Assembly: GCA_038882655.1 (NCBI GenBank)
Contig: JAVZNT010000006.1
Span: forward strand, 1-42,179
Length of the DNA stretch: 42,179 nt
Reading direction: 5' to 3'
From: Candidatus Bathyarchaeia archaeon
GTDB lineage: Archaea; Thermoproteota; Bathyarchaeia; Bathyarchaeales; Bathycorpusculaceae
Shown here: positions 3,138 to 17,447 of the stretch, piece after piece
How the letters are laid out: every line of letters starts with the position of its first letter
How positions within the stretch are numbered: position 1 is the stretch's first letter
Translations under genes and position numbers: made by a program
Notes under the pieces: generated by a model
Databases searched by the model: none
Told to the model about the DNA's origin: nothing
The model's input: only the letters and a program-made list of their open reading frames with translations

Positions 3138-3734
3138 GTGTTAAAATTGGAAAACAAAGTTATAATTGGTATAGACTTGGCTGGCAAAGAGAAGAACCCC
3201 ACGGGATTAGCAATTTTACGAAACAAAAGCGTGGAAACATGCCTAATTTGCACGAACAAGGAAATTTTTGAAAAGGTAATTCGTGCAAACCCAAAAATCG
3301 TGGCAATAGACGCGCCACTTAAACTTCCAAAAAATGGGATTTTTAGAAAAGCGGACAAGAAGCTAATCAAAAACGGTTACCGCGTTTTTCCACCTGGTTT
3401 ACCGGCTATGAAAACGTTAACTCGTCGGGCAATTAGGCTAAATAGGTTAATAACAGAGGCGGGTATACAAACAATAGAAGTGCATCCCACCTCAACGAGA
3501 AAGGCTTTAGGCATGCCAACAAAAGACTGGAAAGTCATTCAAAATATTCTAAAACGTATTGGCCTAGTCGGATCGCTGAGTAAGCACCCATTAACGCCGC
3601 ATGAAATAGACGCCATAACAGCAGCCCTAACTGGTTATCTTTACATGAAAGGCCTAGCAGAAAGCGTGGGAGACCGCGAAGAAGGCTACATTGTAATTCC
3701 AATAAAGCGTGATTGGAGAGAGCTGAGGCTATGA
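3138..3734 (+). CDS. DUF429-like predicted nuclease (RNase H fold)
   Basis: IIGIDLAG, VAIDAPL, IEVHP and HEIDA motifs. Stop overlaps the DP1 start (ATGA). Confidence 0.8.
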   Translation: MLKLENKVIIGIDLAGKEKNPTGLAILRNKSVETCLICTNKEIFEKVIRANPKIVAIDAPLKLPKNGIFRKADKKLIKNGYRVFPPGLPAMKTLTRRAIRLNRLITEAGIQTIEVHPTSTRKALGMPTKDWKVIQNILKRIGLVGSLSKHPLTPHEIDAITAALTGYLYMKGLAESVGDREEGYIVIPIKRDWRELRL

Positions 3735-5314
3735 ACTTTTCTGAAAAACTTCAAAGGGCTGTAGAACTCACTATTTCGGCAGGGTATCAACTTAACAAAG
3801 AGGCCTTCGAGTTCTTAAATGAGGCATCTGCAACCGAAGATCCGGTAGAAATTATAAGCAAAGCTTTAGCCAAAATAGAGACATTGAAGGATAAGCCGCT
3901 TTTCATTGAAAGAAGCTTTCTAGAAGAGCTTGTAAAAACGCCCGGATACATTGAACGCTCCGATTTAGCACCGCAGATTAAGGAAGATGTGTCCCAACAA
4001 GCAATTCCTCAAGGGCAACATGAGCAGCCGCAATTAATCCTTGAGGGGAAGAGGCTTTTCCGTCCATACGCAAAAGAAGTGGATGCTGAAATTAAGATAA
4101 TTGAGGACTCTGGTGGCAAGCTAAGCTCAAGCGGGACAATGGAAGATTACCTTGAATACTTTCGGGATAGGTTTAAGCGAATCGAAAAGTTGTTGAAGCA
4201 AAGAATAGACACGAGGGGGGCCGTTTCAATTGCTGACGCGTTAAGAGCCCCTTCCAACATGAAGCTTAAAGTTATTGGCATGGTAATGGAGAAAAGAGAG
4301 GCAAGACAAAAAATTCTCTTAACATTAGAAGATTTAAGTGCAAATGCCACTGTTCTGGTGCCGCAAAATGCTCCACCAGACCTTTTAAACAAAGCTAGAA
4401 GCCTTTTGTTGGATCAGGTTGTCTGCGTTGATGTTACGAAAACGCGTGGAAACTTGTTAATAGCTGAAGAAATTATTCTTCCAGACATCGCCCCAAAAAG
4501 TCAAAATAAGGCTCCGGTTCCGGTTTACGCCGTGCTCACTTCAGACATGCATGTAGGCAGCGTAAAATTTCGGGAAGAACTTTTCAGTAAGTTTGCTTCG
4601 TGGCTAAAGGGCGAATATGGAAATGGGCAAATGCAAGAAATAGCTAGCCACGTGAAATATGTTTTGATAGCCGGTGACATTGTTGATGGGATAGGAGTCT
4701 ACCCAAACCAAGCAAAGGAACTAGCCATAAAAGATATTTATGGGCAATATAGGGTAGCTTCCAAACTCATCAAGCAAATCCCGGACTACATAGAAGTGAT
4801 AATTATTCCGGGAAACCACGACGCCCCAAGAAAGGCTTTACCCCAACCGCCAATATCCGACGCCTTTCTAGAGAAGTTACATGACGCAAGCAACATTCAC
4901 TCTGTCGGAAACCCATGCCTCCTAAGTCTTCACGGCGTCGAAGTCCTCATGTATCACGGCCGAAGCCTCGACGACATAATCTCTATAGTTCCGGGGATAA
5001 ATTATACTCATCCAGAAAAGGCTATGACATTGCTTTTGCAGTGTCGCCACTTGGCGCCAGTTTATGGGGGGAAAACGCCGTTGGCGCCTGAGAGCAGAGA
5101 CTGCCTTGTTATAGAGCGGGTGCCCGACATTTTCCATGCGGGCCACATCCATACAGTTGGGCACACAAATTATAGAGGTGTAACTATTATTAACTCTGGT
5201 TGTTGGCAAGAGCAGACAGACTACATGCGAAGGCAAGGGTTTAGTCCCATGCCGGGCTTAGTTCTTGTGGTAAATCTCCAAACTTTGGGTGTTAGAATTA
5301 TCCCATTTACCTAA
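3731..5314 (+). CDS. polD1: DNA polymerase D small (proofreading exonuclease) subunit DP1
   Basis: YFRDRF, OB-fold region, and calcineurin-like phosphoesterase motifs SDMHVGS, AGDIVDGIGVYPNQ, PGNHD, YHG, RHLAP, GHIH, NSGCWQ. Confidence 0.96.
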   Translation: MNFSEKLQRAVELTISAGYQLNKEAFEFLNEASATEDPVEIISKALAKIETLKDKPLFIERSFLEELVKTPGYIERSDLAPQIKEDVSQQAIPQGQHEQPQLILEGKRLFRPYAKEVDAEIKIIEDSGGKLSSSGTMEDYLEYFRDRFKRIEKLLKQRIDTRGAVSIADALRAPSNMKLKVIGMVMEKREARQKILLTLEDLSANATVLVPQNAPPDLLNKARSLLLDQVVCVDVTKTRGNLLIAEEIILPDIAPKSQNKAPVPVYAVLTSDMHVGSVKFREELFSKFASWLKGEYGNGQMQEIASHVKYVLIAGDIVDGIGVYPNQAKELAIKDIYGQYRVASKLIKQIPDYIEVIIIPGNHDAPRKALPQPPISDAFLEKLHDASNIHSVGNPCLLSLHGVEVLMYHGRSLDDIISIVPGINYTHPEKAMTLLLQCRHLAPVYGGKTPLAPESRDCLVIERVPDIFHAGHIHTVGHTNYRGVTIINSGCWQEQTDYMRRQGFSPMPGLVLVVNLQTLGVRIIPFT

Positions 5315-5844
5315 GATAGACCACGCGCAATTAGCCTAACAACACGGAGGGGTTCCGGTACACGGCCACAAACAACAAAATTTGCTATCAAGCGGCTGGC
5401 CCATTCTTTTTCCGCACCAACAACCTCAAAAAATAATGGAGGCCCCTCATCTAACACTCTTATTTCGTGGATAGGACCTAATTTTGCAAAAACCTCCCAT
5501 CGTTTTTGCCAATCTCTAAAATGGCGCATAAGTGCTCGTTTAACCGCCTTGTTATCGGGCTTCGTCTTCGCCACAACAATAATTGGCTTGCAAAACTCTT
5601 CGTAGAGAACTATGGGGTTTATTATGTTAAAGCCGGCAAAGGATACCCCAGCAAGCATAACCGCCCCAAAATCCCATTGTTTTAAAATGTCGGCGGCTTT
5701 TTCTGTTGCATCCAAGCCGTCAACGGTTATCCGGTTGAAAGCCACATCCTCAATCGTTAACCCCTTAAAAAGAACAGCGGCTAAAAGAGCCTTCTTAGTA
5801 ACGCCTTTCACAAAGCTTCCCTCTTCAATTCCTACTACCCGCAT
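5311..5844 (-). CDS. DUF99 family protein (endonuclease V-like fold)
   Basis: VVGIEEG, ITVDGLDAT, GVSFAGFNII and PEPLRVVRLIARG motifs. Start uncertain (5844-5874); overlaps the cdc6 3' end. Confidence 0.85.
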   Translation of the reverse strand: MRVVGIEEGSFVKGVTKKALLAAVLFKGLTIEDVAFNRITVDGLDATEKAADILKQWDFGAVMLAGVSFAGFNIINPIVLYEEFCKPIIVVAKTKPDNKAVKRALMRHFRDWQKRWEVFAKLGPIHEIRVLDEGPPLFFEVVGAEKEWASRLIANFVVCGRVPEPLRVVRLIARGLS

Positions 5845-7075
5845 CTTTTGAAAGGCATTTTGGTTCATAATCAATCAAGCGCCAAAGTCTACTGTCATTA
5901 GAGAAGGCTTCTTTAATAAGGGTGCGCGTTACCTCCATGCGGATTTTCTTTGTTCGCCCATAACGCCCCATGCTTACAACCTGCGCGTTCAGCAGCCCCA
6001 AAGCGTCAAGTTCGTTAACCAAAGTGCTTACACGCCTCTGGGTTAAAGGCGTTACAGCCAATTCGCTGCAAAGCTCATTATACACCTCGTATATTTCACC
6101 TGTGACCGTCCGGTAACCATTTGCCCTAACAAGGTGATAAACACTTAACATTACAAGCTTTGAATGTAGAGTCAAATTTGCCAAAGCATCAACAATTCTA
6201 TTATGCTCTATCAGTCTCTCAGCCTCACGGACATGCTCCTCTGTAACAGTGCTTGCACCTTTACGTTCTGCAACTTCACCCGCAACCCTCAGCAAATCCA
6301 GAGCCCTCCGAGCATCACCATGCTCAGCAGCGGCCAAAGCCGCGCAAAGGCTTAAGGCGCCCTCGCTAAGGGACTCTTCGCGAAACGCCATCCGCGCCCG
6401 CTCATCTAAAATATTCCGCAACTCAGCCGCATTGTAGGGCCTAAAGACCATTTCCTCCTCACTTAGCGAGCTTAAAACTCGAGGATCCAAGAATTCTTTG
6501 AGGCGCAGGTCATTGGATATGCCGATTATAGAAACTTTGCTTTGAGTTAATGTTTCGTTAATTCTTGTAAGTTCGTATAGAAGGAGGTCGCTTCGTGTTT
6601 TTACTATAGCGTCCACTTCGTCGAGGGCTATAATCAGTATCCTTTTAGCCGTATCCAAGCCTTGCTTAAACCTGTCAAAAACCTCGCCCAGAGATAGCCC
6701 AGTGAATGGGACTGTTTGGCGAATACTCTGGCATAAGCTTGCGAGAACCCGGTACTCCGTTCCCGCTAAGCGGCAATTTGCGTAGCAGAAACTTACAGGT
6801 GCTCCGATCTCTTTAGCCTTAGCTTCTAAACGGTTTAAGACATATTTTGTTACAGCCGTCTTACCAGTCCCCGTCTTTCCGTAAACAAAAATATTGGAGC
6901 AGCGTGCACCCTTCAAAACCGGTGCTATAGCCTCCCCAAGTCTTCTAATCTGCTCTTCACGATGAGGAAGCCTTTCAGGCAAATAATCGTGACGAAGAAC
7001 TTCCCGGTCTTTAAACACGCCTACCGTGTTGCAAAATCTTTCAAAGACCTCATCGAGTATGCCCATGTCGTTCAT
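5825..7075 (-). CDS. cdc6: Orc1/Cdc6 replication initiator
   Basis: YLPERLPHRE, Walker A GKTGTGKT, Walker B LDEVD, GDARRALDLLR and C-terminal wHTH (GRYGRT). Likely start is ATG 7075 after GGAGGAAGG. Confidence 0.97.
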   Translation of the reverse strand: MNDMGILDEVFERFCNTVGVFKDREVLRHDYLPERLPHREEQIRRLGEAIAPVLKGARCSNIFVYGKTGTGKTAVTKYVLNRLEAKAKEIGAPVSFCYANCRLAGTEYRVLASLCQSIRQTVPFTGLSLGEVFDRFKQGLDTAKRILIIALDEVDAIVKTRSDLLLYELTRINETLTQSKVSIIGISNDLRLKEFLDPRVLSSLSEEEMVFRPYNAAELRNILDERARMAFREESLSEGALSLCAALAAAEHGDARRALDLLRVAGEVAERKGASTVTEEHVREAERLIEHNRIVDALANLTLHSKLVMLSVYHLVRANGYRTVTGEIYEVYNELCSELAVTPLTQRRVSTLVNELDALGLLNAQVVSMGRYGRTKKIRMEVTRTLIKEAFSNDSRLWRLIDYEPKCLSKDAGSRN

Positions 7076-7224
7076 TGTCTTCCTTCCTCCTCTGTGCAGT
7101 TTCATTTCAAAGCGTGTACGCCTTTACTTTCAGAGTGCCAAAATAAGGCATGTCATACAGAAAAGTGAACAAGTAACAGAAAAATCCTAAAATTCGATGG
7201 TTGGTTTGATGCGAGAAGGGAGAC

Positions 7225-7245
7225 ACCCCTTTGCTTCAACTGGAA
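7225..7245 (-). promoter_or_regulatory. Origin recognition box ORB1
   Basis: Minus strand reads TTCCAGTTGAAGCAAAGGGGT, matching the archaeal ORB pattern TTCCAG..GAAA plus a G-string. Confidence 0.85.
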
Positions 7246-7411
7246 ACTCTTAAGTTTAATTGTGGAAGTTTGTGTTTCTTCAGGAAGAAAGAAAATACTC
7301 TGAAAGGTTAGAACTATCTTAAAATTAAAAATATTCTCGTAGAAGTTTTTATACCTAAACTGTAAAATACTTCGTAACCAACTTTTGTTAGACTTTTACC
7401 TTTAAACAATC

Positions 7412-7433
7412 TTCCAGCGGAAACCATGGGGTA
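7412..7433 (+). promoter_or_regulatory. Origin recognition box ORB2
   Basis: TTCCAGCGGAAACCATGGGGTA. Confidence 0.9.
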
Positions 7434-7627
7434 ACTCCCTACACGGTTCACTATGCAAACTGGGCAAGGGTGCTTGCACTGCAGAGCATCTGTCACGATG
7501 CAGAAAGAGGAATCCTATTTTTGTTCACGGTTTGTGAAAATATTGTGAAGTTGACTTGGTTTTTGCGTTTTTGTTTCCTTAGTTTCTATAATGTTGCCAT
7601 TTTTATGCCTCTTCTCTGTGAAAACGC

Positions 7628-7649
7628 TACCCCATAGTTTCTACTGGAA
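7628..7649 (-). promoter_or_regulatory. Origin recognition box ORB3
   Basis: Minus strand reads TTCCAGTAGAAACTATGGGGTA; 19/22 identical to ORB2 and inverted relative to it. Confidence 0.9.
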
Positions 7650-7843
7650 AGAGCAAATATAGTTTCCATTTTCCCTATTTGCATACAAGAACTTTTCTGT
7701 GAAGTTTGTGAGCCTGAATCTTTGAAAATTAAGCTCCTTACATCATTTCCGGTTTAAAATAGGCTTTTCAAATTGCCTAGGTTCACCGTAATAGCTATAT
7801 CTTGCGAAGTGCAAACTTGTGAAAAGAATTTACAGGTGCCATC

Positions 7844-8281
7844 ATGGTGCCAGCGAGGAAGATGCGGATCGAGGTATTCGACAGTGAAGGCAATAAATAT
7901 AGCGTAGCTTTTGAGGGGCAGATTACACGCGATAAAGCACTTCGCTTATTAGATCTGGTGGAGTTATTGGGTGGAGTTACAGCAAGTGGAGCCAATTCAG
8001 GTTTTAACCTTACAACTGTTGAAAAATCAAAATATGATAAGCTGTTAGCTGTTCTCCAGAGGCATTTTCCAATGGTATGGTTCTCATCAAAGGAGGTTCA
8101 AGCAGCCTACGAACAAGAGTTTAATGAGCCTATAAACCTTAGCACGGTAGCTACTTACCTTTCCAGAATGGCTGGCAGGGGGGTGCTCGTAAAAACTGGC
8201 GCCTCTAATCGCCTCAAATACAAAATTGCACCCAGTCCTCCCCGAGTCATGGTGAAGCACCATATACCAGACGAGGGTTAA
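7844..8281 (+). CDS. Uncharacterised protein with small N-terminal beta-beta-alpha domain and C-terminal winged helix
   Basis: C-terminal half FSSKEVQAAY..INLSTVATYLSRMAGRGVLVKTG..LKYK has the BlaI/CopY-like wHTH pattern. A Gly/Ser-rich linker separates it from the N-terminal domain. AGGTG Shine-Dalgarno upstream. Confidence 0.75.
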   Translation: MVPARKMRIEVFDSEGNKYSVAFEGQITRDKALRLLDLVELLGGVTASGANSGFNLTTVEKSKYDKLLAVLQRHFPMVWFSSKEVQAAYEQEFNEPINLSTVATYLSRMAGRGVLVKTGASNRLKYKIAPSPPRVMVKHHIPDEG

Positions 8282-8287
8282 TAGCTT

Positions 8288-9001
8288 CTAAGAAGTTTCT
8301 GTCTCAGCCCTCTTTAGAAATTTTTCCATTTCCTTCTTCACACAGTATTTAAAGGGGATTTTACTCGAATCTCTTTCTAAATAGCCCTCCTCGTAAAGCT
8401 TCTTCATAAGCCTGGCAGTGTGCTCCCTGCTAAGCCTAATTCTCTCTTTAATTTCCGGAGCTGTTTTAGGGCCCTCAGCGACCAACATCCCCAGCACCGC
8501 TAACTCTGTTTCTGTTAACTGGGCTAATGCTTTTTCTCTCTTTATTGGTATGGCGGTTTCAACTCCGAGCTCGGATGGGCTAGGCATCTTTTGGGTTCTC
8601 TCTTCAATAACTGAAATTTTAGCGAGAACTTCTTTATGTGCTTCGGTGATGTCACTCGTCTGTTTTTCTACATCACTTAGCCGAGTAAATAGCCGCTCCT
8701 TATCCGCGAAAAGCGTTTTTGCTTTGTCTTCCAAGAGTTTAAGCCTACTCTCTAGCTCTTTTACAGCCTTTAATGCATCACTGCCATTGGCAGAAGCCGC
8801 CTCAACTTTGTAAGAAATAGTTTGTAAACTGTCGGTTATGCGCTTTAACTCCCTACTAAAACTTAAAAGTATATCATTAAAAGCTTCCTTAGCCTTCTCG
8901 TATTTTTCCCTTATTCTTACAAGGTTCCTGTAATAACCAACAGCAGCACCCACCGCCGCAGTCAAGAAAACACATGAAACAACTATTAAAAGATCAACCA
9001 T
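8288..9001 (-). CDS. Membrane-anchored coiled-coil protein with C-terminal winged helix (MarR-like)
   Basis: Hydrophobic residues 4-24 followed by YYRN..R.R, then about 110 aa of heptad-like helical sequence, a PSPSE linker, and LTETELAVLGML..GPKTAPEIKERIRLSREHTARLMKKLYEEGYLER..KIPFKY. Confidence 0.8.
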   Translation of the reverse strand: MVDLLIVVSCVFLTAAVGAAVGYYRNLVRIREKYEKAKEAFNDILLSFSRELKRITDSLQTISYKVEAASANGSDALKAVKELESRLKLLEDKAKTLFADKERLFTRLSDVEKQTSDITEAHKEVLAKISVIEERTQKMPSPSELGVETAIPIKREKALAQLTETELAVLGMLVAEGPKTAPEIKERIRLSREHTARLMKKLYEEGYLERDSSKIPFKYCVKKEMEKFLKRAETETS

Positions 9002-9268
9002 GTGATGCCTCCTGTGACTTCTGCGTAGCAGGTTGTGACCTTACCATGTTGCATCACACATCACAGTTTAAAATCGAGAACATATAAGCATTGTGGTTCT
9101 TTATGAAATGTATGACATCACAAGTCACAAGCAACATGCACGAACCTTAGCTACGCGAAAGGAAAAACATTCTTATTACCCTCTTTTGGCTATTTAGCCC
9201 TGTTTTCTGCCTTCTTTTCTTATATATGGAGCAGCTATGATTTTTAGTTGTGTGATTTGTGATGTCAC
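9001..9268. repeat. Array of TGTGAY / CATCACA heptad-type repeats
   Basis: TGTGA at 9001, 9013, 9034, 9251, 9258; TCACA at 9054, 9061, 9118, 9125. Three tandem pairs have a 7-bp period. 9113-9129 and 9251-9267 form a 17-bp inverted repeat with one mismatch. Confidence 0.85.
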
Positions 9269-9741
9269 GTAAAACCTTCAGACGGGTTTGAAAGCGTTTT
9301 TAAGCCGCGTTCGAGTTCTTCTCTTAGCATTTTAATGAGTTTTATTTGTTCCTCTGGTTGTTTAGCTTTGTTTGGCAAGTCCTTGTGGGCGTTTATGTAT
9401 TCCTGCAGTTTGTTTGCAATTTCAATATATTGATCAAGAGTTGTGCTTTCAAAGATTCCCAAATACCCTAAGAGCAGCACTGTGTATATTGACTTTATCA
9501 CATTTTCTTGCGCCTGTTTTAAAGTTCTATTGAAGGCTCCGCGGCTTATTTTTGCCTTTGTTAGCCGTAAACTGGCTTTTTCATCGTATTTTAGTGATTT
9601 ACCCGAAACATTTTCGGCTAAAACGTCTATTAGCAATGTTTCTAGCTGCGTTTTTGTCAGATGACTGTTTTTTGTCAGTATTTTGACTATTGGGTCTTCC
9701 AGAGACGTTTTCAGCCATAGTTGTACGCTGTTCTTTAACAT
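9265..9741 (-). CDS. Uncharacterised all-helical protein with probable HTH (Tfx/sigma region 4-like pattern)
   Basis: SHLTKTQLETLL...KISRGAFNRTLKQAQENVIKSIYT pattern; GAGGAG Shine-Dalgarno upstream. The fold assignment is inference. Confidence 0.65.
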   Translation of the reverse strand: MLKNSVQLWLKTSLEDPIVKILTKNSHLTKTQLETLLIDVLAENVSGKSLKYDEKASLRLTKAKISRGAFNRTLKQAQENVIKSIYTVLLLGYLGIFESTTLDQYIEIANKLQEYINAHKDLPNKAKQPEEQIKLIKMLREELERGLKTLSNPSEGFT

Positions 9742-9770
9742 TCTCTACTTTTCTCCTCAGAGTTGTGCTT

Positions 9771-9794
9771 GTTGAATACACTTTTGTATACAAC
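9771..9794. promoter_or_regulatory. Palindromic operator-like site between a TATA-like box and the 9741 start
   Basis: GTTGAATACA-CTTT-TGTATACAAC (9/10 inverted match), adjacent to TTTTAAAA at 9796-9803. Confidence 0.55.
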
Positions 9795-9885
9795 CTTTTA
9801 AAGAGTTTTGCTCGATATCAAAAACTACGCCTTCACGTCGCAACCATTATATGCTAATCTGTATAGCACATTGTGAGGAGAGCGC

Positions 9886-11067
9886 TTGGCATTGCAATTT
9901 AAGGCAGCTGAACGTCTAAAAAATATAAAGCCCTCTGGAATTCGCCGATTTTTTGCTTTGGCCCAAGAAGTTCCCGGCATTATTAATTTAAGTGTTGGAG
10001 AACCGGATTTTACGCCACCCACACACGCTCTAGAAGGAGGCTGGAAGGCCGCATTAGCAGGTAAAACACACTACGCTCCAACTAATGGCATTCCGGAACT
10101 TAGAGAGGCTTTAGCTGAGAAGGCCCATAGAGAATATGGCCTTCAATATGACCCAACCTCTGAAGTATTGGTCACCGTCGGCGGAACGGAGGCAATTTCC
10201 CTTGCTTTGACGGCCTTAGTTAATCAAAATGATGAAGTGTTAATTCCTGATCCCGGTTTTGTCTGTTATGAGCCTAGCGTTAGATTGGCAGGCGGCATCC
10301 CCGTTTCAATTCCTATTTTAGAGAGAAATGGGTTTAAGCCGTCAATTGATGACGTGACGTCACTTATCACGAAAAAATCACGTGTGATGATTCTGAACTA
10401 TCCAAACAATCCTACTGGAATCGTCCTATCATATGATGAACTTAAATTATTAGCCAAAATTGCTGTTGAGCGTGATTTGATTGTGATTTCCGACGAGGTT
10501 TACGAAAAAATAATTTATGATGGAGAAAGGCACCACTGCATTGCAACTTTTCCGGAAATGCGGGAGCGCACATTGGTTGTGAACTCTTTTTCCAAAACCT
10601 ATGCTATGACAGGCTTAAGGGTCGGCTATGTTTACGGACCTAAGGACCTAATTGCCCCCTTGTGGCTTTGCCACCAGTATCTTGTTGCTTGTGTGGATAC
10701 TTTTGCGCAGTATGCCGCATTAGCCGCCTTAAAGGGGCCGCAAGACTTTGTTAAGGAAATGGCGGCTGAGTTTGATAGGCGAAGACGCTTTGTTTTTAAG
10801 AGACTGAACGAGATTGGTGGATTTAGCTGCGTTCTTCCTAAGGGCGCCTTTTATATGTTCCCAAGCATAAAGACTTTTAACATGACTTCAGAGGAGTTTG
10901 CCCAATTCATACTTAAAGAGGCCCGTGTTGCAACTGTTCCGGGCTCTGCTTTCGGTTCTTATGGCGAAGGTTACCTTCGGATTTCTTATGCCGCAGCTTA
11001 TGAGCAGTTGGAAGAGGCTTTCAACCGCATAGAGAAGGCCGTACAAAAGCTTAAGGGCTCTCTTTAG
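9886..11067 (+). CDS. PLP-dependent aminotransferase class I/II (aspartate aminotransferase-like)
   Basis: LSVGEPDF, NYPNNPTG, SDEVY, SFSKTYAMTGLRVG and GYLRISY motifs. Confidence 0.95.
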   Translation: MALQFKAAERLKNIKPSGIRRFFALAQEVPGIINLSVGEPDFTPPTHALEGGWKAALAGKTHYAPTNGIPELREALAEKAHREYGLQYDPTSEVLVTVGGTEAISLALTALVNQNDEVLIPDPGFVCYEPSVRLAGGIPVSIPILERNGFKPSIDDVTSLITKKSRVMILNYPNNPTGIVLSYDELKLLAKIAVERDLIVISDEVYEKIIYDGERHHCIATFPEMRERTLVVNSFSKTYAMTGLRVGYVYGPKDLIAPLWLCHQYLVACVDTFAQYAALAALKGPQDFVKEMAAEFDRRRRFVFKRLNEIGGFSCVLPKGAFYMFPSIKTFNMTSEEFAQFILKEARVATVPGSAFGSYGEGYLRISYAAAYEQLEEAFNRIEKAVQKLKGSL

Positions 11068-11897
11068 AGTTCTTCTGCTTTTGCTTTTAGTTTACTGAAG
11101 AGCTCTGGGCGTAAATCCTTCAATGTGGGGACAAAGGTTTCCACGGGCTTTATGTCTGCATAATCCACTTCGCCCATCACAAGGTCTTCCTCATCATACT
11201 TCGCCTTTGCAATGATTTTCCCGTTGGGGGCTACTAGTCTGCTTCCACCCCAAAACTGCAAACCATCTTCTATGCCCACAAGGTTGACGTACGCCAGAAA
11301 CGTTGCGTTTTCAATGGCCCTCGCAACTGTTAGAGTTTCAAAGAACGACCTGCGAACGGCTGGCGCGGCTGAAATACAGACGATCAGCTGCGCGCCTTCC
11401 AAGCGTGTTAGCCGACAAACTTCAGGGAAGAAGATATCATAACATATGATCAGCCCGATTTTTCCAACATGTGTTTCGAAGGCTCCTGCTTGGTATCCGG
11501 GTCTAAAATATCTTTTCTCCTCGAAAACACTGTGAGTTGGTAAGTGCATCTTCCTATATTTTCCAATGTATCCTTCTGGTCCTACGAGAACTGCAGAGTT
11601 ATAGATTGTTGCTTGTGCTTTTCCGCTGAGTTCTGGCATTCCAAATACTATGTGGACTTTATACTTCTTTGCGGTTTTTTCTATGGCGGTTGCTGATGTT
11701 CCTGGAATTTTTTCTGCTAGCTCAAATAGTTCATCCCTTATGGTGTATCCTGTCAGCGAGAGTTCGGGGAAAATAACAAGTTCTGCACCATGTTGCTTTG
11801 CGTTTGCAGTATATTCCTCGATCTTGCGTATGTTTGCTTGCTTGTCTCCTCTTTGGCAGCTTATCTGGGCCAGGGCGATCAAGAATTTTTCTTTCAA
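11064..11897 (-). CDS. Carbon-nitrogen hydrolase (nitrilase superfamily)
   Basis: Glu-Lys-Cys triad in FPEL, YRKMHL and ICYDIFFPE; ARAIEN motif. Likely TTG start at 11897, 13 nt after the nadE stop. Confidence 0.93.
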   Translation of the reverse strand: MKEKFLIALAQISCQRGDKQANIRKIEEYTANAKQHGAELVIFPELSLTGYTIRDELFELAEKIPGTSATAIEKTAKKYKVHIVFGMPELSGKAQATIYNSAVLVGPEGYIGKYRKMHLPTHSVFEEKRYFRPGYQAGAFETHVGKIGLIICYDIFFPEVCRLTRLEGAQLIVCISAAPAVRRSFFETLTVARAIENATFLAYVNLVGIEDGLQFWGGSRLVAPNGKIIAKAKYDEEDLVMGEVDYADIKPVETFVPTLKDLRPELFSKLKAKAEEL

Positions 11898-14024: not shown

Positions 14025-17000
14025 TTGGGCGTTCAAATGAGCAAGTCCTATGAAAAATATGTTGCGACTTTAGAGGGGCAGCTCGGGCAATTATACAATA
14101 TAGCTACCGAAACTCGCAAGAAAGGCTTTGATCCCGAATTTAAACCCGAGTGCACGGTTGCAAGGGACATGGCTGACCTTATTGAAGGGCTTGTTGGTCC
14201 GAAAGGTGTGGCAGGAAGAATCCGAGAGTTAAGTTCAAAGCTTTCGAGGGAGGAGCTTGCCTTTAAAATCGCTGAGGAAATTGTTTATGGAAAGTTTGGA
14301 CACTTGGAGCCTGAGGCTGCCGCTGAACAAGCCATTCGCACAGCCTTAGCTATTCTCACGGAAGGAGTTACCGCCGCTCCAATACAAGGCGTTGCCCAAG
14401 TTAAGATAAAAACTAACCATGATAGATCAAAGTACTTGGCTATCTATTTTGCTGGTCCGATACGCTCTGCTGGTGGCACTGACCAAGCGCTTACACTTGT
14501 TATTGGCGATTTTATCCGTAGGATTCTCGGGTTGGACCGTTATAAGCCCACAGAAGAGGAGATTGCCCGCTTCATTGAGGAGGTTAGGCTCTATGAGCGT
14601 AGCGTAAGCCGTTTCCAATATCACGTTTCAGACGAAGAGTTGCAGAGGGCTCTTCGCTGGTTGCCCGTGGAAGTGACTGGCACAGAATCCAACCCTGTCG
14701 AAGTATCCTCTTACCGTAACTTAACTCGCATAGAAACTAATAGGGTTCGGGGCGGGGCGCTCCGTGTTGTTAATGATGGAGTCGTTGGACGAGCTTCGAA
14801 GGTTTGGGCTATTGTAGAGAAACTGGGTATACAAGGTTGGGACTGGCTCAAGGAAATTCGAAAGATGTCTGAAAAGAAAGCGACGGGCTTCATGGATGAC
14901 ATTGTTGCAGGGCGTCCCATATTCTCCTTTCCAGGTAGACGTGGCGGTTTTCGCCTGCGCTACGGAAGGGCAAGAAACACGGGATTAACAGCGGTAGGCA
15001 TCCACCCAGCCACGATGCTTGCCCTCCAAGACTTCATCGCGGCAGGCACTCAACTCCGTCTGGAGCTTCCGGGAAAAGGCGGCATCGCGGTACCAGTTGA
15101 CACCTTAGAGCCTCCAATAGTGAAATTGAAAGACGGGTCTGTTATGCGCGTCACTGCGGAAAACTTTAGCGATGTTAAAGATAGCATCGAGAAAATCTTG
15201 TTTTTGGGTGACGTTCTCATAAGTTTTGGAGATTTCCTTTATCAAGGAAAGAGCCTTGTTCCCGCCGGATACGTTGAAGAGTGGTGGGCTGAAGATTTAA
15301 GAAAGATCATTGCTGAGAAGTTTGAGGGAGATTTTGAGAAGGCAGCAGCTGCCACAGGGATACCCGGCGAGAGGATTAGAAGCTTTTTAGAAGATCCGTT
15401 TTTGAATAAGCCGACGTGTAAAGAAGCTATAAAAATCTCATTGGGCGTTGGGATTCCGCTTCATCCAGCCTTCACATTCTTCTGGTCCAATTTAGGTTCT
15501 GCTGAGGAACTTAAACTTCTTAGGGAATGGCTGGCTTCAGCTAAAGTAGAGTCTGATGGAGAATCCGCCTACCGTATCATTGGTGAAATGAGCGAGCATG
15601 TTAAGCGAGCTTTAGAAGCTATATGCTTGCCCCATAAAGTTGTGAAGGGCGATATAATTATTGATGGAGATGAAGCGTGTACCTTTGCTTTCTGCCTTGG
15701 CATCAAAAATCTCAACAGTGATTTTCGCCAAGCGGAAAATGTTTTGGAGGCTATTAAGGAACTGTGCGGTGTGGTCGTTAAGGATAAGGCTTTGACTTTT
15801 GTTGGCGCAAGGATGGGACGCCCTGAAAAAGCTAAGAGGCGGGAGATGAAACCCCTTGTGCATGTCTTATTCCCGGTAGGTTTGGCTGGCGGTTCTCAAA
15901 GGGACATTTTGGAGGCTGCTAAACGAGAAAATATCTACGTGGAAGTTGTTAAACGCAAATGCCCCTCGTGTAAGGCAAGAACTTTCGGGATAAAGTGCCT
16001 CGTATGCGGCTCTGAAACAGTTCTGGAGTATGCTTGTCCAAGATGTGGAAGGACGCTTAATGGCAGCCGCGAGTGCCCAGTCTGTAAAGTTTCCGCTGTT
16101 CCCTATGAGAAACAAAACATTAACATTAAGGAATTGCTGGATGAGGTATACGCTCGTCTAGGGGTTTCGACACTGAAGGTTTTGAAAGGTGTTAAGGGTT
16201 TAACTAATGAAACTAAAACTCCAGAAATTCTTGAAAAGGGTGCTTTGCGGGCAAAGTATGACTTGTCTGTTTACAAGGATGGCACGATTCGCTTTGATGC
16301 AACAAACGCGCCATTAACACATTTCAAACCGTCAGAGGTAGGGGTTTCCCTTAAAAAGCTTGTTCAACTTGGTTATACAAGTGATATTTATGGCAATCCC
16401 TTAACAACTCCAGACCAAATATGTGAACTGAAAATACAAGATGTTGTCATACCCATTAGATGTGCAGAATACTTTGTGCGCGTGGCAAACTTTGTTGACG
16501 AACTTCTGATGAAAGTTTACGGGCTTTCGCCATACTACAATGTTAAGCGTGTTGAAGACCTTGTTGGACATTTGGTCGTTGGTTTAGCACCTCATACATC
16601 AGTTGGCATCATCGGTCGGATAATTGGGTTTACAAGTTTGAATGTTTGTTACGCCCATCCAATTTGGCATTCCGCTAAACGCAGGGACTGTGATGGTGAT
16701 GAAGACGCTTTAATGCTTGCCCTAGACATGCTGCTAAACTTTTCAAAAGTTTTCTTACCCGCACAGATTGGCGGCATAATGGATGCGCCTCTGCTGTTAA
16801 TCTCTGTTGTAAACCCGAAAGAGGTGCAGAGGCAGGCGCACGATTTTGACGTGGCTGGTGCTTATCCCTTAGAGTTTTACCAGAAAACCTTGGAGAGAGC
16901 AGAGGCGAAACATGTGAGCCGACTAATAGACATCATTGAATATCGCCTTGGAACCGAAGCACGGTATGAAGGTTACCGCTTCACGATACCTGTTTCAAAC

Positions 17001-17447
17001 ATTAATATGGGAAACGATGAAAGCGCCTACAAACGCTTCAAAACCATGGTGGAAAAACTTAACGGGCAATTAGTTCTTGCAGAGAAAATTGAGGCTGTCG
17101 ACGCCAAGAAAGTCGCCTTAAAAGTCTTAACGAAACATTTTATCCGCGACATCGCCGGAAACCTAAGAGCATTTTCAATGCAAGGATTTCGCTGTAAATC
17201 TTGCAATAAGCGTTTCCGTCGGTTGCCACTGCGGGGTAAGTGCCCAATATGCGGTGGAGAGTTAACCCTAACGGTTTATCGGGGCGGCATAGAAAAGTAT
17301 CTTGAAGCCGCCGAGCACATAATTAAGAAGTATAAGTTGCCCCGGTATTATAGTCAGCGGATTCTGCTTGTGAGGGAGGAAATTAGCTCGCTCTTTGAGT
17401 GTAAGAAGCCCAAACAGATTAGCCTAGCCGACTTCGCTTTAAAGTGA
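14025..17447 (+). CDS. polD2: DNA polymerase D large subunit DP2 (no intein evident)
   Basis: AGPIRSAGGT, GGFRLRYGR, GARMGRPEKA, Cys clusters, catalytic RRDCDGDED and C-terminal zinc finger. Confidence 0.98.
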   Translation: MGVQMSKSYEKYVATLEGQLGQLYNIATETRKKGFDPEFKPECTVARDMADLIEGLVGPKGVAGRIRELSSKLSREELAFKIAEEIVYGKFGHLEPEAAAEQAIRTALAILTEGVTAAPIQGVAQVKIKTNHDRSKYLAIYFAGPIRSAGGTDQALTLVIGDFIRRILGLDRYKPTEEEIARFIEEVRLYERSVSRFQYHVSDEELQRALRWLPVEVTGTESNPVEVSSYRNLTRIETNRVRGGALRVVNDGVVGRASKVWAIVEKLGIQGWDWLKEIRKMSEKKATGFMDDIVAGRPIFSFPGRRGGFRLRYGRARNTGLTAVGIHPATMLALQDFIAAGTQLRLELPGKGGIAVPVDTLEPPIVKLKDGSVMRVTAENFSDVKDSIEKILFLGDVLISFGDFLYQGKSLVPAGYVEEWWAEDLRKIIAEKFEGDFEKAAAATGIPGERIRSFLEDPFLNKPTCKEAIKISLGVGIPLHPAFTFFWSNLGSAEELKLLREWLASAKVESDGESAYRIIGEMSEHVKRALEAICLPHKVVKGDIIIDGDEACTFAFCLGIKNLNSDFRQAENVLEAIKELCGVVVKDKALTFVGARMGRPEKAKRREMKPLVHVLFPVGLAGGSQRDILEAAKRENIYVEVVKRKCPSCKARTFGIKCLVCGSETVLEYACPRCGRTLNGSRECPVCKVSAVPYEKQNINIKELLDEVYARLGVSTLKVLKGVKGLTNETKTPEILEKGALRAKYDLSVYKDGTIRFDATNAPLTHFKPSEVGVSLKKLVQLGYTSDIYGNPLTTPDQICELKIQDVVIPIRCAEYFVRVANFVDELLMKVYGLSPYYNVKRVEDLVGHLVVGLAPHTSVGIIGRIIGFTSLNVCYAHPIWHSAKRRDCDGDEDALMLALDMLLNFSKVFLPAQIGGIMDAPLLLISVVNPKEVQRQAHDFDVAGAYPLEFYQKTLERAEAKHVSRLIDIIEYRLGTEARYEGYRFTIPVSNINMGNDESAYKRFKTMVEKLNGQLVLAEKIEAVDAKKVALKVLTKHFIRDIAGNLRAFSMQGFRCKSCNKRFRRLPLRGKCPICGGELTLTVYRGGIEKYLEAAEHIIKKYKLPRYYSQRILLVREEISSLFECKKPKQISLADFALK

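Follow-up and report, generated by a model that had tools for sequence, protein, structure and literature searches.

A predicted membrane-anchored winged-helix protein encoded beside oriC in Bathyarchaeia that may fasten origin-proximal DNA to the cell membrane

What kind of protein might hold an archaeal replication origin at the cell membrane? To our knowledge, chromosome positioning and segregation in archaea are largely unknown outside SegAB, and the membrane tether once suggested for Sulfolobus has never been identified. That suggestion came from authors who found Sulfolobus replisome foci at the cell periphery, as described in the available part of their report (PMC3384333). The question is raised anew by the window analyzed here, which is the whole 42,179-nucleotide stretch of contig JAVZNT010000006.1 (positions 1 to 42,179, forward strand) in the GenBank assembly GCA_038882655.1 of a Candidatus Bathyarchaeia archaeon, where a gene near oriC encodes a protein with a predicted transmembrane anchor, a long coiled-coil rod and a winged-helix head. 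The home assembly of 1,024,976 bases (1.02 Mb; 84% complete) contains one copy of the gene. Its product may fasten origin-proximal DNA to the cell membrane, and a sensor role is unlikely, as only three of its residues are predicted to be outside.

Anchor, rod and winged-helix head

Based on charge rules and conservation, the protein is predicted to be bitopic, with three residues outside the membrane and the remainder in the cytoplasm. A reading made earlier from the sequence only (hereafter the sequence-only reading) had described a hydrophobic helix at residues 4-24 followed by basic residues, and this helix is indeed the single hydrophobic segment found: the 19-residue Kyte-Doolittle mean has its maximum of 2.48 at residues 4-22, and all windows starting past residue 6 are at or below 1.6. 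The hydrophobic run of about 21 residues is preceded by MVD, with no K/R and one acidic residue, and followed by 16 residues with six K/R and two acidic residues. The positive-inside argument by which the rod and head had been placed in the cytoplasm can be extended to the relatives, for which four sequence groups were compared (Bathyarchaeia, 121 sequences; a second group, 150; Nitrosopumilus, 120; short forms, 15). An N-terminal transmembrane helix is present in 117/121, 114/150, 120/120 and 12/15 of them, respectively, and the motif [ST]REHx[AGS]R of the head in 121, 135, 120 and 15 sequences. Among the members with both, K/R residues are more numerous after the helix than before it in 117/117, 99/103, 120/120 and 12/12, or 348/352 in total, which is consistent with the predicted topology. 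Because the extracytoplasmic tail consists of three residues, there is no space for a sensor domain, as had been claimed, and no extracytoplasmic domain of the ToxR/CadC type precedes the helix. The short N-terminal tail is likewise common to the whole 32-sequence alignment used below.

The rod also bears out what had been read from the sequence, i.e., a coiled coil of about 110 residues that would span roughly 16 nm. In the 32-sequence alignment, the strongest hydrophobicity period of residues 25-137 is exactly 3.50 residues with a power of 145, a value reached by 0 of 2000 shuffled controls (8.4 ± 8.3). The 16 heptads keep a single register throughout, with zero stutters, and at about 0.15 nm per residue the 113 helical residues give a length of roughly 17 nm. 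The AlphaFold2 model made with a 110-sequence alignment (mean pLDDT 88.9) contains one helix from residue 2 to residue 137 at pLDDT of 92-98, with residues 140-154 disordered (pLDDT <50). A helical hairpin had been considered from a 32-sequence AlphaFold2 run (mean pLDDT 68.8) in which the helix broke at residues 70-72; this idea was dropped because the break is not seen with 110 sequences and the heptad register is continuous. Homodimer prediction with two copies of residues 1-140 and a 32-row alignment scored 0.02 against a mark of 0.42, which weighs neither way on dimerization, and a sequence search of the PDB with the profile yielded nothing more than generic coiled coils (chemoreceptor, 7e-7) and weakly matching winged helices. 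The distance from the transmembrane helix to the head motif is 167 residues (161-170) in Bathyarchaeia (117 proteins), 120 (115-121) in Nitrosopumilus (120 proteins) and 82 (79-83) in the short forms (12 proteins), while column identity within Bathyarchaeia falls from 90% in the head and 78% in the 30 juxtamembrane residues (25-54) to 59% in the distal rod. That the spacer stays constant in each lineage while its sequence drifts suggests that the distance matters.

The head (residues 156-236) agrees with the MarR-like winged helix-turn-helix proposed before. Pfam matches above the gathering scores, all within residues 161-221, were obtained for TrmB (PF01978; 4.3e-7, 30.1 bits versus a cut-off of 25.6, residues 162-221), MarR (PF01047; 1.5e-6, 28.5 bits versus 24.6, residues 162-213, profile positions 1-52 of 59), MarR_2 and HTH_27. 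AlphaFold2 predicts a canonical winged helix with helices at residues 164-176, 181-188 and 192-205, wing strands at 208-211 and 218-221 and a last helix at 223-236. In Foldseek comparisons, MarR-family chains match at E of about 1e-4, and similar scores are obtained for the ArsR protein CzrA and for AspA, an archaeal plasmid centromere binder (4rs8_A; TM-score of 0.72 on the target, rmsd of 2.4 over 75 columns); the head is therefore of a generic MarR/ArsR type. Six residues are invariant in 110 sequences down to 20% identity, of which R192, H194 and R197 are in the predicted recognition helix and R210, P216 and Y219 in or beside the wing. By prediction, a DNA-binding domain and a transmembrane helix are thus combined in one protein, as in DNA-membrane tethers.

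Proteins of the MarR family are about 140-150 residues long, with N- and C-terminal helices that flank the head and form the dimer interface, and those of the TrmB family have a C-terminal effector (sugar)-binding domain. The protein described here shares the winged-helix core of both, with MarR proteins as its nearest solved folds, but just the core of about 55-60 residues matches. A disordered linker and the 113-residue rod are found upstream of the head and one short helix (223-236) downstream, and the protein stops 16 residues past the wing with no further domain found. Because the flanking dimerization helices and the effector domain are absent, it is not a MarR or TrmB member in the full sense, and dimerization would come from the rod rather than from flanking helices as in MarR. 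The whole-protein NCBIfam cut-offs of Lrs14 (26.4 bits versus 90) and Sta1 (23.1 versus 80) are also missed.

Relatives are numerous. A word-index search with the window protein found 4,376 at E <= 1e-3 among 6,001 candidates, a profile search of 1.84 billion cluster representatives found 796 at E <= 1e-3, 324 at <= 1e-10 and 110 at <= 1e-30, and at least 543 loci are present in the one-genome-per-species set. In a 401-genome sample of the phylum (match threshold of 1e-5), 195 genomes match, including 25/25 of the same family, 19/21 others of the order, 7/13 others of the class and, among further families, 56/56 of f15, 23/24 of f28 and 16/17 of f23. In these groups the distribution is housekeeping-like, and five of eight f15 loci examined gave open reading frames of the same architecture. 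The best relatives are labeled 'MarR family transcriptional regulator [Candidatus Bathyarchaeia archaeon]' in the databases, a homologue in f28 is labeled 'MarR family transcriptional regulator [Nitrososphaerota archaeon]', and one in f15 (L092), itself with 4,259 relatives by word-index search, is labeled 'winged helix DNA-binding protein [Nitrosopumilus sp.]'. As far as can be predicted from the sequences, the architecture of anchor and recognition helix is kept in Bathyarchaeia, Nitrosopumilus and other Nitrososphaerota.

The promoter box array and its linkage to the origin

The 263-bp gap between orf158, the conserved upstream neighbor, and the gene contains 9 of the window's 31 TGTGAY hexamers, and six of the nine form three tandem TGTGAYNTGTGAY pairs (boxes A, B and C; Table 1). 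In the whole assembly, TGTGAYNTGTGAY is observed three times versus 0.58 expected, each time within positions 9053-9263. A weight matrix trained on 144 sites from other genomes only, the weakest of which scored 12.5 bits, also gives three matches of at least 12 bits over the assembly, which are boxes A, B and C; single TGTGAY hexamers number 561. The sequence-only reading had suggested the interval 9001-9268 as one of two DNA targets of the head, and this is where the unique array is found. All 79 related loci with an orf158-to-gene gap have at least one tandem (three in 55, two in 19 and one in 5), and 208 tandems are found in 22,980 bp within the gap versus 17 in 878,444 bp outside it. The locus accounts for 13/15 tandem matches in five other genomes (1.5-2.5 Mb), with one match for a reversed control pattern.

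The boxes have fixed positions relative to the ATG, at about -64, -131 and -260 to -295, on both sides of a TATA-like consensus. In the relatives, Box B (TGTGAyrTGTGAyGTCAT) is near -131, cc.taa.CTTTAAAT follows 22-25 bp downstream, and Box C (AAAcTGTGATgTGTGATGtAACatG) is about 14 bp beyond, near -64, while Box A is in the opposite orientation at the orf158 stop codon. Given standard archaeal promoter geometry, Box C probably overlaps the transcription start. One half-site in the leader overlaps the start codon, and GGAGG is 6 nt before the ATG. The promoters of the Nitrosopumilus-like loci are also rich in TGTGAT, with 4-6 hexamers per 200 bp versus about 1.2 per kb, and in these and other distant loci the 200-bp window densest in TGTGAT within each 20-kb locus is the region upstream of the gene. 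The recognition helix of the head and the TGTGAT-rich promoter are thus kept across classes, whereas the repeat on the oriC side has changed from TTGTGAA to TGTTAAC.

The six same-class genomes without a family match, which are 95-100% complete, all contain orf158. Tandem boxes are found in none of the five gene-less loci that keep it (L112, L113, L115, L116 and L117), and the sixth locus (L114), where hexamers are scattered and one pair is inverted, is also free of tandems. In L112, L113 and L115 orf145, the convergent neighbor, abuts orf158, and the L112 and L113 stretches also include cdc6. The missing tandems indicate that the boxes, including Box A, travel with the gene and not with orf145 or orf158, a co-occurrence that fits binding of the protein to its own promoter. 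Co-conservation was also tried as a means of naming the box binder; all three proteins of the cluster have conserved helices, so that this argument alone is not decisive.

The gene order in the window is DP1, Endo_dU, cdc6, oriC, orf145 (convergent), the anchored-protein gene and orf158, and the box array is 1.4-2.0 kb from the origin recognition box (ORB)-like boxes of oriC. Among 80 Bathyarchaeia loci, all from Bathyarchaeia or Bathyarchaeota records and several of them stopping at contig edges, orf158 is a neighbor in 79, orf145 in 74, cdc6 in 70 and DP1 in 64. In 14 of 20 distant genomes cdc6 is at most 3 kb from the gene pair, including 8/8 of f15, and two complete genomes with the ring opening inside the cluster are among these 14. 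Without cdc6 in the vicinity, the gene nonetheless adjoins orf145 (L102, L103 and L106) or orf158 (L100 and L101). The Bathyarchaeia neighbors nadE, nit and aat have no match in the seven f15 loci screened (L092 and L094-L099) and so provide an internal control; general gene order has therefore decayed while the origin-side core has been kept. The three genes orf145, orf158 and the anchored-protein gene form an origin-side trio, which the databases label only as 'MarR family' or 'hypothetical'.

Possible roles and known systems

We propose, at a little short of an even chance, that the protein binds its own operator-like array, represses itself and keeps this site, which is 1.4-2 kb away from the origin boxes, at the membrane, in the manner of RicO of Staphylococcus aureus. 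A parallel coiled-coil dimer with N-out/C-in topology would carry two heads, each on a flexible linker of 18 residues, at about 17 nm from the membrane on its cytoplasmic side, and the heads would recognize the nine TGTGAY half-sites of the promoter, six of them as tandem pairs. Occupancy of the boxes on both sides of the TATA-like element and over the transcription start would repress the gene and keep its copy number low, and since the protein would be unable to leave the membrane, the same occupancy would also fix the DNA to the membrane. The array would then be operator and attachment site at once, like parC for ParR on plasmid R1, and the outcome would resemble the effect of RicO on the S. 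aureus origins. The sequences show the protein's anatomy, its family, the conserved position, the unique and conserved boxes and the co-occurrence of boxes and gene; membrane insertion, dimerization, the identity of the box binder and an effect on origin position or segregation are the steps that we infer. A broader version, in which Bathyarchaeia and ammonia-oxidizing Nitrososphaerota would share a dedicated origin-to-membrane device, with a single centromere-like TGTGAY array beside oriC, the newly replicated origin region kept below the membrane at a distance fixed for each lineage (about 17 nm here) and orf145 and orf158 as origin partners, is unlikely as a whole.

The architecture is a new variant of both DNA-membrane tethers and membrane-bound winged-helix regulators. 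ToxR, CadC, TcpP and the archaeal ArnR are single polypeptides with a membrane anchor and a winged-helix head in the cytoplasm; these regulators have periplasmic or HAMP-like sensor parts and an N-terminal head, in contrast to the three outside residues and 16-heptad rod found here. Noc and RacA, both from Bacillus subtilis, bind DNA and take the chromosomal DNA to the membrane or pole. Noc resembles ParB, contains an amphipathic helix and uses many sites, RacA reaches the membrane indirectly via DivIVA, and both have folds unlike that of this protein. The repeats at the promoter of the ParR operon (parC) of plasmid R1 serve as operator and segregation site for their own binder. SegB of Sulfolobus similarly has a site beside segAB, according to the available text of PMC12139799. 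Both systems share with the present proposal repeats around or next to the promoter of the binder itself and a dual role as operator and segregation site, but ParR and SegB are soluble adaptors that act together with a motor (ParM or SegA), whereas this cluster is without a motor gene and the membrane anchor would replace the motor. RicO, as far as the accessible portion of its description goes, is made up of a domain that binds DNA, a coiled coil and a helix that binds the membrane; it recognizes ricS sites near the origin and anchors origins (10.64898/2026.03.06.710092). It thus has the same parts (sequence-specific DNA-binding domain, coiled coil and membrane element), sites near the origin and an origin at the membrane, as proposed here; it differs in being bacterial, with the reverse domain order, a C-terminal amphipathic helix and nine ricS sites over about 700 kb, as opposed to a transmembrane helix and one array at the protein's own promoter. 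The likeness is one of plan only, and no sequence relation is claimed. A similar origin-side position is held by the haloarchaeal oapABC (arvABC) genes beside oriC1, which the parts seen of two reports describe as three genes conserved on the side of oriC opposite orc1, with OapA as a GTPase in vesicle formation (PMC7002104, PMC10927574). Their products (small GTPase, DUF2073 and DUF2072) are unrelated to those of the trio. Our full-text search, which covered main texts, found no literature on the family or on an archaeal origin-membrane tether, and the available part of an archaeal cell-cycle review mentions no such tether (PMC7617429).

Several results weigh against the proposed attachment. 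The arrangement of boxes around the TATA-like element matches simple autorepression, and no tandem box was found inside oriC, the second DNA target suggested by the sequence-only reading. With a looser tandem pattern, five Nitrosopumilus-like genomes gave 4-12 matches per genome versus 1-5 for the control, and two of the five have no loose tandem at the locus; the claim of uniqueness is therefore limited to Bathyarchaeia. The co-occurrence of boxes and gene cannot tell a target from a binder because a promoter element would be lost along with its gene, and orf145 and orf158 carry conserved helix-turn-helix-like helices, either of which is a possible box binder. Adjacency to cdc6 is lost in 6/20 distant genomes. 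The gene is absent from 6/13 other genomes of the same class (95-100% complete), and no match was found in other families of the phylum (0/16, 0/23, 0/12 and 0/15), so that it is not universally needed. The oapABC genes also adjoin oriC, yet OapA is a vesicle GTPase, and origin adjacency alone is therefore no sign of origin function. No binding, localization or expression data for family members were found. The preference of the sequence-only reading for a tether over a sensor thus gains from the linkage to oriC and cdc6 across classes, the lineage-fixed rod length and the genome-unique array, and loses from boxes that flank the TATA-like element as those of a plain autoregulatory operator would.

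The same layout would suit an ordinary membrane-tethered, self-repressing transcription factor, whose anchor would serve sequestration, proteolytic release or sensing of the membrane state, whose regulon would consist of single or degenerate boxes missed by the strict tandem pattern, and whose position at oriC would reflect just gene dosage or cell-cycle timing. We consider this somewhat unlikely, but a rival to be taken seriously. The MarR/TrmB-type head and the precedents of ArnR, a membrane-bound archaeal regulator, and of oapABC, for which origin adjacency needs no origin function, speak for it, and the 561 single hexamers could include weak targets. However, the three-residue outside tail contains no sensor domain, no second site of at least 12 bits exists in the assembly while the weakest training site scored 12.5, a mere leash would need neither a fixed rod length per lineage nor an unbroken heptad register, and orf145, oriC and cdc6 stay linked to the gene from class to class as other neighbors change. 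It is improbable that a different factor (orf158, orf145 or an unlinked regulator) binds the TGTGAY boxes and controls the gene, and that the winged helix binds bulk nucleoid DNA, the TTGTGAA repeat of oriC or a protein partner. Conserved helix-turn-helix-like helices are present in orf145 (LSxxxTYLSR) and orf158 (I[ST][RK]GA[FY]xR), Box A abuts the orf158 stop codon, which the tandem of locus L105 overlaps, and TTGTGAA, with its TGTGA core, is found in 71/71 oriC regions. Against this stand the five loci (three with orf145 alongside) that have orf158 but neither the gene nor tandem boxes, the putative recognition stretch of orf158, which differs considerably between Bathyarchaeia and Nitrosopumilus whereas the boxes and the recognition helix of this protein do not, and the oriC-side repeat, which changes between classes while that helix stays the same.

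That the winged helix is a protein-interaction module of a membrane scaffold, e.g., for division or envelope biogenesis, without contact to DNA, is very unlikely. Winged helices do serve as protein-binding modules in ESCRT and Cdv components, as the available text of PMC11188069 reports, and the juxtamembrane segment is well conserved (0.78 column identity). But the invariant residues lie in the predicted recognition helix (R192, H194 and R197) and in and beside the wing (R210, P216 and Y219), the parts with which MarR-type heads contact DNA, the closest structural neighbors are AspA and DNA-binding proteins of the MarR and ArsR types, and no division gene was found in the cluster. The chance that the N-terminus is a cleaved signal peptide, or that the C-terminal part faces outward, is next to negligible: nothing beyond the N-terminal hydrophobic stretch speaks for it, and that stretch has no basic n-region, is about 21 residues long and is followed by six K/R within the next 16 residues, with the same charge bias in the 348/352 members given above, and a DNA-binding fold outside the cell would be functionless.

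If the broader version with a dedicated origin-to-membrane device is true, that device would be an archaeal physical equivalent of the membrane attachment that the classical replicon model postulates. The protein is a concrete and testable tether candidate in two abundant and ecologically important groups, the Bathyarchaeia and the marine ammonia oxidizers; its putative DNA target is about 260 bp long, and a simple soluble part of the protein could be assayed. Even as a regulator, it would be an unusual one, membrane-bound and sensor-less with a single known target. The analysis also exposes a conserved origin-side gene trio in Thermoproteota.

Further features of the locus

The replication island at positions 3713-7105 of the window consists of the genes for the PolD small subunit, Endo_dU and Orc1/Cdc6, with oriC next to it, and the gene for the PolD large subunit is 7 kb further on (Table 1).

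Table 1. Positions of the genes, protein segments and DNA elements discussed in the text (window coordinates).
Feature	Position	Strand	Basis or remark
PolD small subunit (DP1)	3713..5314		NCBIfam 1.6e-150
Endo_dU gene	5311..5874		
orc1/cdc6 initiator gene	5825..7105	-	Cdc6_C 2e-29, Cdc6_lid 1.6e-26
oriC region with three ORB-like boxes and strand-biased TTGTGAA repeats (738-bp gap)	7106..7843	.	boxes at 7225-7246, 7412-7433 and 7628-7649
orf145, conserved convergent neighbor: small N-terminal domain and putative winged helix (LSxxxTYLSR)	7844..8281	+	in 74/80 loci
Gene of the anchor–rod–head protein (237 residues, stop codon included)	8288..9001	-	open reading frame call; single copy in the assembly
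Residues 156-236, MarR/TrmB-type winged helix-turn-helix	8294..8536	-	Pfam above gathering scores; AlphaFold2 fold; Foldseek
Residues 192-205, predicted recognition helix REHTARLMKKLYEE	8387..8428	-	invariant R192, H194 and R197
Residues 138-155, flexible linker ending in invariant I151-P152-I153	8537..8590	-	pLDDT <50 at 140-154; invariant columns
Residues 25-137, continuous 16-heptad coiled-coil rod	8591..8929	-	period 3.50, one register; AlphaFold2 helix
Residues 4-24, single predicted transmembrane helix, N-out/C-in signal anchor	8930..8992	-	hydrophobicity and flank charges
Three single TGTGAY half-sites (9001, 9013 and 9034) in the leader, inverted relative to boxes B and C	9001..9039	+	
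Box C, tandem TGTGAT-G-TGTGAT, about 14 bp downstream of the TATA-like element	9053..9065	-	33.6 bits
TATA-like element (GCTTATATG), inferred by alignment with the relatives' CTTTAAAT consensus	9081..9089	-	
Box B, tandem TGTGAC-T-TGTGAT then GTCAT, upstream of the TATA-like element	9117..9129	-	26.9 bits
Box A, same tandem in opposite orientation, abuts the orf158 stop codon	9251..9263	+	27.7 bits
orf158, conserved upstream neighbor with helix-turn-helix-like motif I[ST][RK]GA[FY]xRxxxQ	9265..9741	-	in 79/80 loci
PolD large subunit	14025..17447		

The two neighbors of the gene stay linked to oriC and cdc6 from Bathyarchaeia to Nitrosopumilus, even in genomes without the anchored protein. No Pfam or NCBIfam family was found for orf158, and orf145 has a weak Penicillinase_R match (0.027). 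In the protein atlas both belong to hypothetical clusters, with weak leads to Penicillinase_R in 11-18% of members and to Sigma70_r4 at a score of 0.80. The TTGTGAA repeat of the 71 oriC regions amounts to 239 copies, a 9.4-fold enrichment, with a strand bias and fixed positions, at distances of about 21, 36, 141, 222, 295 and 306 nt from the orf145 start, and is replaced by TGTTAAC in Nitrosopumilus-like origins; orf145 is a candidate binder of this repeat. In L102, L103 (around 10625-11640) and L106 (around 10730-11456), orf145 borders a 0.7-1 kb AT-rich non-coding stretch with short inverted repeats, and the stretch of L106 bears TTCCATTGGA-type boxes. These AT-rich stretches may be origins without an adjoining initiator gene.

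In 27/74 Bathyarchaeia loci an insert of 2.6-2.8 kb is found between the anchored-protein gene and orf145 (e.g., 6719-9257 of L011), encoding a DUF87/HerA-like ATPase of 511 residues and a 336-residue protein without a family; the window is without the insert. In L105, a gene with HTH_3 and CBS domains (10427-11062, minus strand) is found between the TGTGA boxes and the anchored-protein gene in an apparent operon, and it is in this locus that a tandem box overlaps the orf158 stop codon. The 17 tandem TGTGAY boxes outside the promoter gap are distributed one each over 17 loci (L026, L027, L029, L032, L034, L035, L037, L039, L045, L049, L056, L057, L059, L060, L064, L075 and L081), in several of them at about 3,730-3,810 of the locus, close to where a nitrilase-like gene ends, or at 4,490-4,930, and may represent a fourth site of the same system.

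A search of positions 7000-9900 against Rfam gave no match at E up to 1, and the reading of the intergenic repeats as RNA elements is therefore unsupported. Contigs from a hot-spring DNA run part from the window at positions 9045 and 9113, exactly within the box-bearing promoter, which suggests strain-level variation or recombination breakpoints. Two libraries labeled metatranscriptomic are probably DNA.

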